Of a stretch of DNA of 64,000 nucleotides, positions 3,394-59,384 are shown piece by piece. The stretch's first letter is position 1, and every line of letters begins with the position of its first letter. The notes under the pieces are model-generated. The model was not told the origin of the DNA. It saw only the letters and a list, made by a program, of their open reading frames with translations, and ran no database searches. The DNA comes from an uncultured Verrucomicrobiae bacterium (GTDB lineage Bacteria > Verrucomicrobiota > Verrucomicrobiia > Chthoniobacterales > JAFAMB01). The DNA is taken from positions 352,001-416,000 of the forward strand of contig CAWEXO010000014.1 in assembly GCA_963813025.1 (NCBI GenBank), read 5' to 3'. Both the position numbers and the translations under genes were made by a program.

Positions 3394-3621
3394 GTAGCGC
3401 GGACGGCCTCGTCCGTACTCTTGTGGCTGCGCCAGCGCACGGCAGGTTTCCTTTTGCTCCCAGGACACGTGAAGTAATGCATCAGGCTTTGGCGCGTGGT
3501 TGGCCACTCGCCCAAGAGTACGGACGAGGCCGCGTCTGTCGGACTTTGGTCATCTGTAGCTCGCGCAATCGAGCTAAGGTTCGAGACATGTCCCAAAGCG
3601 TCTTTGGTCCTGCGCCGGTAG
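3394..3621. repeat. Cluster of GTAG-type palindromic repeats (left flank of the IS110)
   Basis: GTAGCGCGGACGGCCTCG at 3394 (also at about 51870, and inverted at 5201-5219 and 14631-14649). 20-bp IR 3404-3423/3513-3532. Segment 3578-3621 is homologous to 46010-46054. Confidence 0.75.
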
Positions 3622-3636
3622 ATACGGTCTTGGATG

Positions 3637-4647
3637 TCAAGGGCATTGGTTTAAGGAATGGCGGGCCAGGTTAGGGTTGTAGGGTTGTTGGTGAGCGAGA
3701 ACACCGAAGGCGATGTGCAGGAGTTTTCGCATGACGGCACCGCGGATAGCCAGGGAGTGGAGCTTGCGCGACTCGAGACCTGCGGCCCATTGCTGGATGG
3801 GTTTGCACCAGCGGCGAGCAACGGCGGCCGGCAAATAGAGTGCTTTGCGCAGGAAAGCGTTGCCGATTTTGCACAGGGTGGTTTTGCCGTAGAGCGAGAC
3901 ACCGGAACGGAATTCAGAAGGAGTCAGCCCAGCATAGGCCGCCAACTGCCGAGCCGATTGGAACTCTTTACCGGCCAGCTCGGCCAGCAGCTTGGCGGCT
4001 GTGAGCTGGGCAATGCCGGGAATAGAGCACAGCAGTTGGCTTTGGCGGCTTAAAGCCTGATCAGCCGCGACTAAGCCGAAGATGGCCGACTCCAGCTGAG
4101 CGATTTCTTTCTTGAGCTGGGCGAGTCGTTGGCCACGCTGTTGGCTGACAAGCTCGGGCAGCGCAATTGGGTAAGGGTCTTTTTTCACCCGGTTCTGTTC
4201 CCGGATGAGCTCGCCAACCCGGCTTTCGCGCTCCCGCACCAGCAGTTTGAATTCTTCCTCAAGGGGGCGCAGCGGCCGAGTGGCCAGTGGTTTTCGCTCC
4301 AGACAAAACTGGGCAATGATGGCCGCATCAACCCGATCATTTTTGGTGCGGCGCAGGACCGAGAAAGCAAAGTATTTGACTTGGGCGGGATTGAGCACGC
4401 TGACCGCCAAGCCTGCTTGGTGCAGAGCGGCGATCAATCTCTTCCCGTAGACCCCGGTGGCTTCCAGGGCGAAGTGGATCTGGGAGAGCGGCCAAGAGCG
4501 GGCCTGGAGTTGGGCTAAAAATGCTCCAATGCCGGTCGCATCATTGCTGAACTTTCCCCGCCACAGGCGAGTGCCATTCTTGGAGAGCAGGCAAAAGTCA
4601 AAGCTTGCTTTTGCCATATCAATACCCATGCAGTAGCGTTTTTTCAT
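3637..4647 (-). CDS. IS110-family DEDD recombinase/transposase, 336 aa
   Basis: RuvC-like DEDD residues GIDMAK, LEATG, RTKNDRVDA; C-terminal SIPGI...AYAGLTPSEFRSG (catalytic Ser motif) and GNAFLRKALY. Likely ATG at 4647. Confidence 0.95.
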   Translation of the reverse strand: MKKRYCMGIDMAKASFDFCLLSKNGTRLWRGKFSNDATGIGAFLAQLQARSWPLSQIHFALEATGVYGKRLIAALHQAGLAVSVLNPAQVKYFAFSVLRRTKNDRVDAAIIAQFCLERKPLATRPLRPLEEEFKLLVRERESRVGELIREQNRVKKDPYPIALPELVSQQRGQRLAQLKKEIAQLESAIFGLVAADQALSRQSQLLCSIPGIAQLTAAKLLAELAGKEFQSARQLAAYAGLTPSEFRSGVSLYGKTTLCKIGNAFLRKALYLPAAVARRWCKPIQQWAAGLESRKLHSLAIRGAVMRKLLHIAFGVLAHQQPYNPNLARHSLNQCP

Positions 4648-4699
4648 CAGAGAGGAATTCGCGTTGAATTGGTTCTTTGTTTGATGAAGCGCTTGGGCG

Positions 4700-4928
4700 C
4701 GCGCCTGCTGACAGAGCCTTGTGAACACGGGCTTATGTTCCAACCCTGTTTGGAACGGCCTAAGATACGGTACGGTCTTATGCAGGTGCGGCACGAGGAA
4801 GGGTGGACTAATCTACCGGACAGGTCCTACCGACCTTTGGGCGAGGCAGTTTTCCACCCTCCTCGGCCAAGTTCTTCACTTCCAGAGTTCCGCCCTTGCG
4901 GGCGGCTTTAAAAGGGAAAAAAAATTGG
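4700..4928 (-). ncRNA. Predicted IS110 bridge RNA (5' hairpin, target-binding loop, donor-binding loop)
   Basis: 5' hairpin at 4890-4905. Target loop closed by the 4794-4807/4853-4865 stem, with guides CTCGCCC (4839-4845) and CCGGTAG (4813-4819). Donor loop closed by CCTGC/GCAGG (4782-4786/4704-4708), with guides ACCGTATCT (4763-4771) and ACAAG (4718-4722). Ends are approximate. Confidence 0.82.
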
Positions 4929-4945
4929 TGGGGCAAGGTACAAGA

Positions 4946-5062
4946 GCGAAAATTTATTCGAGCCTTAGCGAGAACTTGTTTGAGCCGTCTTCAGTGTGAC
5001 CTGCCCAACGCCCGGCTCAAACGAGTCTTCGCCGAAGGCTCAGATGAATTCTCGCCTTACCG
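4946..5062. repeat. GTAG palindromic repeat family A (remainder of the copy interrupted by IS110)
   Basis: GCGAAAATTTATTCGAGCCTTAGCGAGAACTTGTTTGAGCCG ... CGGCTCAAACGAGTCTTCGCCGAAGGCTCAGATGAATTCTCGCCTTACCG forms imperfect inverted arms. Confidence 0.85.
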
Positions 5063-53025: not shown

Positions 53026-53312
53026 GGTAGGGCGAAAATTTATTCGAGCGCTAGCGAGAACTTGTTTGAGCCGTCTCGGGTGTGGCGCGAAGGACAAAGC
53101 GGCGGTGGGAAGGACCGACAGGAGCCGGTCCCTACCGCTGCGGGGCGATCAGCGCCCGGTAGGGAAGGACCGACTGGAGCTACGTGCCGTTGTCGCGCTC
53201 TTTCAGAGCTGGGCGCTCTCTTATCCGTGTTCCTAGGCCTGCGGCCTAGGCTTTCTTGCATCGCGCCTTCGGCGCTCTTTCGCGCTGAAAGCGCCAAGTC
53301 GCACGCACTCCA
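53026..53312. repeat. Composite repeat cluster: family A arm (53026-53073), family D (53107-53137), family B (53175-53312)
   Basis: Each unit matches copies elsewhere in the window. Confidence 0.8.
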
Positions 53313-59311: not shown

Positions 59312-59384
59312 AGCGGGTGACGCGACTCGAACGCGCGACATCTTCCTTGGCAAGGAAGTGCTCTACCAACTGAGCTACACCCGC
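59312..59384 (-). tRNA. tRNA-Gly (GCC), CCA not encoded
   Basis: GCGGGTGTAGCTCAGTTGGTAGAGCACTTCCTTGCCAAGGAAGATGTCGCGCGTTCGAGTCGCGTCACCCGCT folds as a cloverleaf. Confidence 0.96.

Follow-up and report, generated by a model that had tools for sequence, protein, structure and literature searches.

The 64,000-nt stretch of Verrucomicrobiota DNA analysed here (the window) carries on its minus strand an insertion sequence of the IS110 group. The non-coding left end of this element contains a predicted bridge RNA in which guides for both halves of the target site and for both ends of the element can be read. We consider it highly probable that the 1321-bp element is complete, likely to be active, and works in the manner of IS621. 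Every feature of the IS110 group that could be tested here was found in it. A first-pass annotation, made from the letters of the window and its open reading frames, had described such an element with four readable guides and called it complete; both ends and an uninterrupted recombinase frame are indeed present, in this copy and in all seven full copies of the genome. We have little doubt that the original observation is correct and that its interpretation is supported. The coordinates of the features discussed below are collected in Table 1.

Table 1. Features of the insertion sequence and its surroundings, in window coordinates.
Feature	Position	Strand	Basis or remark
IS110-group insertion sequence, 1321 bp, no terminal inverted repeats	3622..4942	-	7 full copies, derivatives and empty sites
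Recombinase gene, 336 aa	3637..4647	-	single long frame; Pfam, NCBIfam and structure matches
Predicted bridge RNA, ~230 nt	4699..4928	-	start from the -10 position; end at the close of the donor-loop stem
5' hairpin GCCGCCC-GCAA-GGGCGG, atop a weaker extended stem	4890..4906	-	6 pairs, 99.2% of cells paired
Target-binding loop (loop 1)	4790..4868	-	outer stem 4868-4853/4807-4790; inner hairpin 4836-4822
Donor-binding loop (loop 2)	4699..4789	-	outer stem 4789-4782/4708-4699; inner hairpin 4756-4737
Left target of the window copy, TTTCGCT + core CT (4944-4943)	4943..4951	-	copy comparison
Right junction, core CT (3621-3620) + right target ACCGG	3615..3621	-	copy comparison
Left target guide (LTG), CCUCGCC + CA (CCUCGCCCA)	4838..4846	-	same sense as left target plus first core base
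Right target guide (RTG), CCGGUAG	4813..4819	-	exact reverse complement of CT-ACCGG
Candidate handshake guide, AU	4811..4812	-	complementary to donor positions 6-7 (AT of ACCGTAT)
Left donor guide (LDG), ACCGUAUCU (DNA ACCGTATCT)	4763..4771	-	equals right end ACCGTAT + core CT
Right donor guide (RDG), split: GU (4726-4725), bulge UC, ACAAG (4722-4718)	4718..4726	-	reverse complement of CT-TGTAC
Candidate donor-loop handshake guide, GC	4716..4717	-	G could pair with target position 7 (C)
Putative -10-like hexamer TACCTT, left-end positions 3-8	4935..4940	-	function inferred
Putative right-end -35 hexamer TTGACA, 13 nt from the tip	3635..3640	-	overlaps the recombinase stop codon

Extent of the element and its recombinase

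The termini were set by comparing 13 copies and fragments from the same genome (16 contigs, 4.4 Mb) with one another and with empty sites, in which the two flank matches overlap by 2 nt, a pattern seen at many other places. Read on the minus strand, the element starts with TGTACCTTGCC (TGTACC at 4942) and finishes with AAGACCGTAT (ACCGTAT at 3622), with the core dinucleotide CT on either side (4944-4943 and 3621-3620). Of the 14 inverted-repeat pairs detected, none links one terminus to the other. The non-coding left end measures 295 nt (4942-4648), in agreement with the earlier estimate of roughly 295 nt upstream of the recombinase.

The recombinase matches PF01548 (9.3e-32, residues 8-155) and PF02371 (7.3e-22, residues 204-281) in Pfam, and scores 207.7 bits against a cutoff of 140 with the NCBIfam model NF033542, "IS110 family RNA-guided transposase". 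It aligns over its full length with the structures of IS621 (8wt6; HMMER, E 2.3e-46) and ISCro4 (9t56; E 1.2e-44). Identity to IS621 is about 35%, or 112 of 321 aligned residues by a hand count of the identity line. The catalytic residues of IS621 are given in the accessible part of PMC11208158 as D11, E60, D102, D105 and S241, and the corresponding columns of the 8wt6 alignment, read by eye, hold D10, E62, D104, D107 and S248. The closest relative of the recombinase on a plasmid is 41.7% identical, and a phylum-wide protein search found relatives at E <= 1e-40 in only 1 of 400 other sampled genomes.

Seven of the 13 copies and fragments in the genome are full-length, at 99-100% identity. The other six comprise one with an internal deletion of about 80 bp, one interrupted by another insertion sequence, and four diverged or deleted derivatives. 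All seven full copies retain the intact 336-aa frame with zero to five amino-acid differences, their near identity indicates recent spread, and no guide base differs among them. These observations make a loss of mobility unlikely, whether of the window copy alone or of the entire family in this genome; the element would in that case be a true IS110 member whose guides preserve only a fossil specificity. What speaks for such a loss is that no circle junction was seen in the contigs of three runs, that the site of the window copy has an extra mismatch beside the core, and that the window copy has private changes in its RNA, namely G for A in the inner hairpin of loop 1 and A for G at left-end position 64. 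The hairpin change, however, turns a U-A pair into U-G or adds a C-G pair and so leaves the stem unbroken, and a probably active element is the reading that we prefer.

In the interrupted copy (G000 C9:69145-67091), a 1449-bp IS3-like element stands in place of positions 297-1011. The IS3-like element has two overlapping frames, one of 110 and one of 345 aa, and is present in three copies in the genome (99.6-100% identity).

Target site and host repeat

The sequence to the left of the element reads TCGCC-CT in 12 of the 13 copies, the exception being the window copy itself with TCGCT-CT, and the right flank is CT-ACCGG in all 12 copies that have a right end, the thirteenth being without one. 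The core CT is present on the left side of every copy (13/13) and on the right side of every copy with a right end (12/12). The left target consensus first proposed, T(T/C)TCGCC-CT, holds for the family and fails for the window copy, which is inserted at TTTCGCT-CT. The variant target TTTCGCTCTACCGG was found twice as an empty site.

When a natural empty site was used as the query, the insertion point was spanned by 144 HSPs, identifying it as part of a host repeat. The exact 12-mer TCGCCCTACCGG occurs 95 times in 4.4 Mb, against about 0.5 occurrences expected by chance, and these 95 are perfect sites without an insertion. The repeat has a core unit of about 50 bp, represented by more than 200 HSPs, with the target at the 3' end of this unit. 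A guide mechanism explains why at least 12 insertions fall at one position of a repeat present in more than 140 copies. IS621 inserts in REP sequences, and the element described here likewise targets a multicopy host repeat.

Inverted arms of the host repeat, GCTAAGG(C/T)TCGA, flank the target on both sides (3573-3584 and 4958-4969 in the window, and in the empty site at G000 C4:5924-6041). The target is thus enclosed by a palindrome, with the insertion point between its arms, much as in the REP-type targets of other IS110 elements. An enrichment of C at target position 2 among occupied sites was judged too weak for use. A single contig joint that skips the element (3621-4946), found among the contigs of three runs, was considered as a sign of excision at this locus and rejected; its shorter side has 23 letters and it contains one extra letter, and we ascribe it to another, empty copy of the host repeat.

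Structure of the predicted bridge RNA

The IS621 bridge RNA starts at left-end position 15 according to the accessible part of the PMC11208160 supplement. By analogy, the bridge RNA of the present element would start near 4926-4929, close to the upper coordinate of 4928 given in the first-pass annotation. Folded as a single sequence, the 295-nt left end has an MFE of -102 kcal/mol, with a z score of -3.27 relative to shuffles. An alignment was assembled of 22 distinct left ends, taken from this genome and from related elements that scans of named genome contigs and of metagenome contigs had revealed. The consensus fold of these 22 sequences consists of a 5' hairpin, an outer stem and inner hairpin forming loop 1, and an outer stem forming loop 2, which bears out the 5' hairpin and two large internal loops originally proposed. 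Across the 35 pairs of this structure, 97.4% of cells are paired. Compensatory change is found in 10 of the 35 pairs, compared to 2.6 +/- 1.2 in shuffles, none of 500 of which reach 10, and to no more than three in slid controls.

Most of the compensatory changes are found in the outer stem of the target loop (7 of 16 pairs), whose inner hairpin has five pairs, and a further three are found among the eight pairs of donor-loop helices 4 and 5. The 5' hairpin is without covariation because it is nearly invariant. Support is weaker for the extended lower 5' stem and for a small 3' hairpin (80.4-80.5% paired), the extended stem having three double-change pairs. The inner hairpin of the donor loop was misaligned by MAFFT; it forms in all 22 sequences when these are folded singly, and its stem sequence differs in L017, L046-L068, L022 and L075. 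The guides fall in unpaired parts of this covariation-supported structure. In the single-sequence MFE fold, part of the RTG (GGUAG) pairs with CUGCC located just 5' of the LTG, a pairing that is absent from the consensus fold. The fold check that had been proposed for this region leaves the guides unpaired in the consensus, with the RTG partly paired in the single-sequence MFE.

At the gathering score, Rfam 15, which may hold no bridge-RNA model, returned no family in the bridge-RNA region, and at E values up to 10 only chance-level microRNA and sRNA matches were found between 3400 and 5200. Elsewhere in the window, Rfam identified an Acido-Lenti-1 sRNA (53232-53276, plus strand; 41.6 bits, gathering score 37) and a tRNA (59312-59384, minus strand).

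Guides for the target and the donor

All four guide strings that the first-pass annotation had reported are present on the minus strand where it had placed them. Together, the four motifs did not occur in any of 100,000 mononucleotide shuffles of the left end; taken singly, they occurred in 1.9% (RTG, 7 nt), 0.12% (LDG, 9 nt), 3.6% (LTG, 7 nt) and 25% (RDG, 5 nt) of shuffles. The LTG corresponds to CCTCGCCCA on the minus strand (4846-4838), which includes CTCGCCC. It has the same sense as the top strand of the target and would thus pair with the bottom strand. Its second core base is A rather than U, and its first position (C) never matches the T of the target. At the site of the window copy, where a T stands beside the core (TTTCGCT-CT), the LTG matches only four of seven non-core positions and the first core base. 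The RTG is, as had been noted, exactly complementary to a flank that is found at every right end recovered in this genome.

The RDG is longer than first recognized. The ACAAG originally identified is present, and the guide extends through a split GU..ACAAG arrangement that spans CT-TGTAC, as in IS621, for which discontiguous RDG pairing is described in the accessible part of PMC11208160. The candidate handshake guide AU that follows the RTG matches A81/U82 of IS621 in position and identity (PMC11208158, accessible part), and being invariant in the 22 relatives it offers no covariation test. For the candidate handshake in the donor loop, covariation was not seen: in the L041 group, target position 7 is G and the RNA still carries G. 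None of these irregularities, that is, the LTG mismatches, the additional mismatch of the window copy, the pairing of the RTG in the MFE fold and the non-covarying handshake, contradicts the model. Tolerance of mismatches at the core is a subject of PMC11208160, as far as its accessible part goes.

Covariation of guides with targets and ends

Guides and flanks of related elements were extracted with motif patterns of our own design, and elements not fitting the patterns were dropped. The loop-1 pattern was matched by 53 elements, 46 of which have a right flank and provide 17 distinct combinations of RTG and flank. Ten of these combinations, representing 37 elements, are perfectly matched at all five non-core positions and correspond to ten right targets (CCGG, CCGA, CCGT, CCGC, CCTG, CCAA, CGGG, TCGGG, CCGGG and TTGTG). 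The remaining seven combinations, in 9 of the 46 elements, are imperfect (L013/L014, L015/L019, L011, L050, L053, L060 and L074). In total, 73 of 85 RTG positions match, and none of 10,000 shuffles reached this number (mean 46.3, maximum 62). For the LTG, 117 of 154 positions match over 22 distinct combinations when each is scored in the better of two registers that differ by 1 nt, and again none of 10,000 shuffles reached the observed value (mean 93.5, maximum 114). As the sequences are related and not independent, the shuffle counts overstate significance, and the number of different specificities that are perfectly matched is the stronger argument. The check on guide and target covariation suggested along with the original observation was thus positive when run on the relatives.

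The donor guides follow the ends of the element in the same way. The LDG variant ACCCUAUCU, a G-to-C change present in four elements, is accompanied by the right end ACCCTAT in both of those that could be tested (L046 and L053). The split RDG has GU in elements whose left end is TGTAC and AU in those with TGTAT, in all seven distinct combinations.

These results bear on whether the guide-like strings might act as DNA, either as subterminal protein sites or as copied end and flank sequence, with no bridge RNA being made. Such an explanation would account for the presence in the left end of ACCGTATCT and AAGACCGTA, which repeat right-end sequence as subterminal repeats would. An internal protein site, however, would not track sequence outside the element, as the RTG and LTG do at ten or more different host sites. 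The strings are also located in loops closed by stems with compensatory changes, indicating constraint at the level of RNA. Where the LDG has G in place of A, in L062 and L070, G-T pairing with the bottom strand is still possible. Homologous systems have moreover been shown to use RNA (PMC11208160 and PMC11208158, in their accessible parts). We regard a purely DNA-level role as very improbable, and a guide-bearing bridge RNA as the reading to be preferred.

Several further observations were made among the relatives, which form a clade with 71-79% protein identity and one conserved RNA scaffold. Relative to the window element, the LTG register is shifted by 1 nt toward the inner hairpin in L041-L072, L022-L031, L046, L047 and L075, with the loop length unchanged. 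In three lineages (L011 together with the fragment at G000 C4:5894; L013-L015 and L019; and L050) the RTG has changed from GGUAG to GCUAG while the target keeps C at +2, resulting in a C-C mismatch. This mismatch may be tolerated, given that the L013 family has at least four copies with both ends in one genome. Relative L027 (1185-1215) has three tandem copies of the 11 nt with which its left end begins (TGTATCTTCCT).

Two deletion derivatives, L010 and L011 (G000 C15:124627-123620 and C9:218161-219169), are 1008 and 1009 bp long and share 99.4% of their sequence. In both, the bridge-RNA region and the two ends are preserved, and the part of the recombinase gene containing D104 and D107 is gone. 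Each is inserted, between normal CT flanks, in a different copy of the host repeat, which suggests that they moved once the deletion had occurred, presumably in trans. The deletion is larger in a 628-bp relative (C12:154618-155245). No full-length parent of the deletion-derivative subfamily, which has 89% and 82% identity to the main one, was found in the assembly. The clade could conceivably represent a natural retargeting series that reveals undescribed rules for bridge RNAs (two LTG registers, a C-C mismatch at +2, and 1-kb derivatives moved in trans, presumably driven by full-length copies), a suggestion that we put forward tentatively and with some doubt.

Putative junction promoter and proposed mechanism

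A scan for promoters and terminators between 3500 and 5100 identified none of either, and no sigma-70-like promoter was found in the integrated state, so that expression would depend on a circle junction or on read-through. Joining of the two ends through CT places TTGACA of the right end 17 nt from TACCTT of the left end. Left-end positions T1, G2, T3, A4, C6, T7 and T8 are invariant in the 22 relatives. TTGAC(A/T/G) with the same spacing is present in every recovered right end, which is not an unbiased count because the extraction pattern required TT[GT]AC. The stop codon of the recombinase, TGA, lies inside the right-end TTGACA box.

Based on these findings and by analogy to IS621, the element would excise as a circle, and the joining of its right and left ends would set TTGACA 17 nt upstream of TACCTT, forming a putative promoter from which a left-end non-coding RNA of about 230 nt could be transcribed. 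This bridge RNA would be bound by the recombinase, which combines a DEDD RuvC-like domain with a serine Tnp domain. At the host site TCTCGCC-CT-ACCGG, loop 1 would then pair with both strands: on the left side the LTG would bind the bottom strand, and on the right side the 7-nt RTG would bind the top strand. Loop 2 would pair with the joined ends ACCGTAT-CT-TGTAC, the LDG on the left and the split RDG on the right, and strand exchange at the CT core would insert the element. The enzyme may accordingly be regarded as a probable programmable recombinase, as the first-pass annotation had proposed.

Comparison with known systems

A comparison with the IS621 RNA, made by eye from the sequences printed in the accessible part of the PMC11208160 supplement, shows that the layout is followed position by position, as originally claimed. 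The IS621 target loop is described there as a 9-nt LTG, a hairpin ending in ACCUGU and a 9-nt block made up of a 3-nt RTG extension, a 4-nt RTG and a 2-nt handshake. Loop 1 of the present element consists of CCUCGCCCA, a hairpin ending in (G/A)ACCUGU and then CCGGUAGAU (CCG-GUAG-AU). The IS621 donor loop reads ...CCGU-NN-UU-N7 in the same source, and loop 2 here reads ...CCGU-GU-UC-ACAAGGC, comprising the GU guide, the UC bulge, the ACAAG guide and the GC handshake. The IS621 donor that had been quoted, ACAGTATCTTGTAT, is as printed in that supplement, and it is identical at 12 of 14 positions to the donor of this element, ACCGTATCTTGTAC.

As far as the accessible parts of Durrant et al. 2024 (PMC11208160) and Hiraizumi et al. 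2024 (PMC11208158) describe IS621, the two systems share a two-domain recombinase with aligned catalytic residues, and a left-end RNA, predicted in the present element, that precedes the recombinase gene and is composed of a 5' hairpin, a target loop and a donor loop. They also share the 9-nt LTG, ACCUGU before the RTG, the AU handshake, the LDG, the split RDG and the CT core. The putative junction promoter of the present element has the geometry found in IS621, with the -35 box in the right end, the -10 box at left-end positions 3-8 and a 17-nt spacer. Unlike IS621, whose host is Escherichia coli, the present element resides in a member of the Verrucomicrobiota, apparently a soil bacterium to judge from the names of relatives, and its protein is only about 35% identical. 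Its predicted RNA of about 230 nt, compared to 177 nt in the accessible description of IS621, exceeds the latter in the length of the 5' region and the size of the loops. With 7 nt (two core and five further positions), the native RTG is longer than the 4-nt RTG of IS621, and the target is TCTCGCC-CT-ACCGG rather than ATCGGGC-CT-ACGCA, again by the same partial sources. In addition, the second core base of the LTG, being A, is unpaired here, unlike that of IS621. The 7-nt RTG had been singled out at first as a distinguishing feature; its length stands but is not new, as the accessible part of PMC11208160 reports some IS110 orthologues with a longer RTG than that of IS621.

In the literature searched, no published work joining "bridge RNA" and "Verrucomicrobi" was found, and the RNA and donor strings of the element have no occurrences in the readable part of the PMC11208160 supplement, which does list Verrucomicrobia proteins. 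Within that literature, the element is probably uncharacterised. It is a real but ordinary IS110 element whose proposed mechanism is known from IS621 and, with that mechanism already established, it opens no new question. It does provide a fully readable bridge recombinase from a phylum for which we found no described example in print, and is a candidate orthogonal enzyme for genome engineering. Its close relatives, which combine one scaffold with at least ten target specificities, constitute a natural dataset on which positions of the scaffold tolerate reprogramming.

Among other characterized members, ISCro4/IS622 (PDB 9t56; 10.1101/2025.05.14.653916, accessible part) belongs to the same family and, judged by its full-length homology to the recombinase, is no closer than IS621. 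By their descriptions in the accessible parts of PMC12288879 and 10.64898/2026.03.19.712850, ISPpu10 and ISPpu9 of Pseudomonas putida differ from the present element in host phylum and in the repeat that they occupy, and resemble it as multicopy IS110 elements that target one repeated intergenic sequence of the host.
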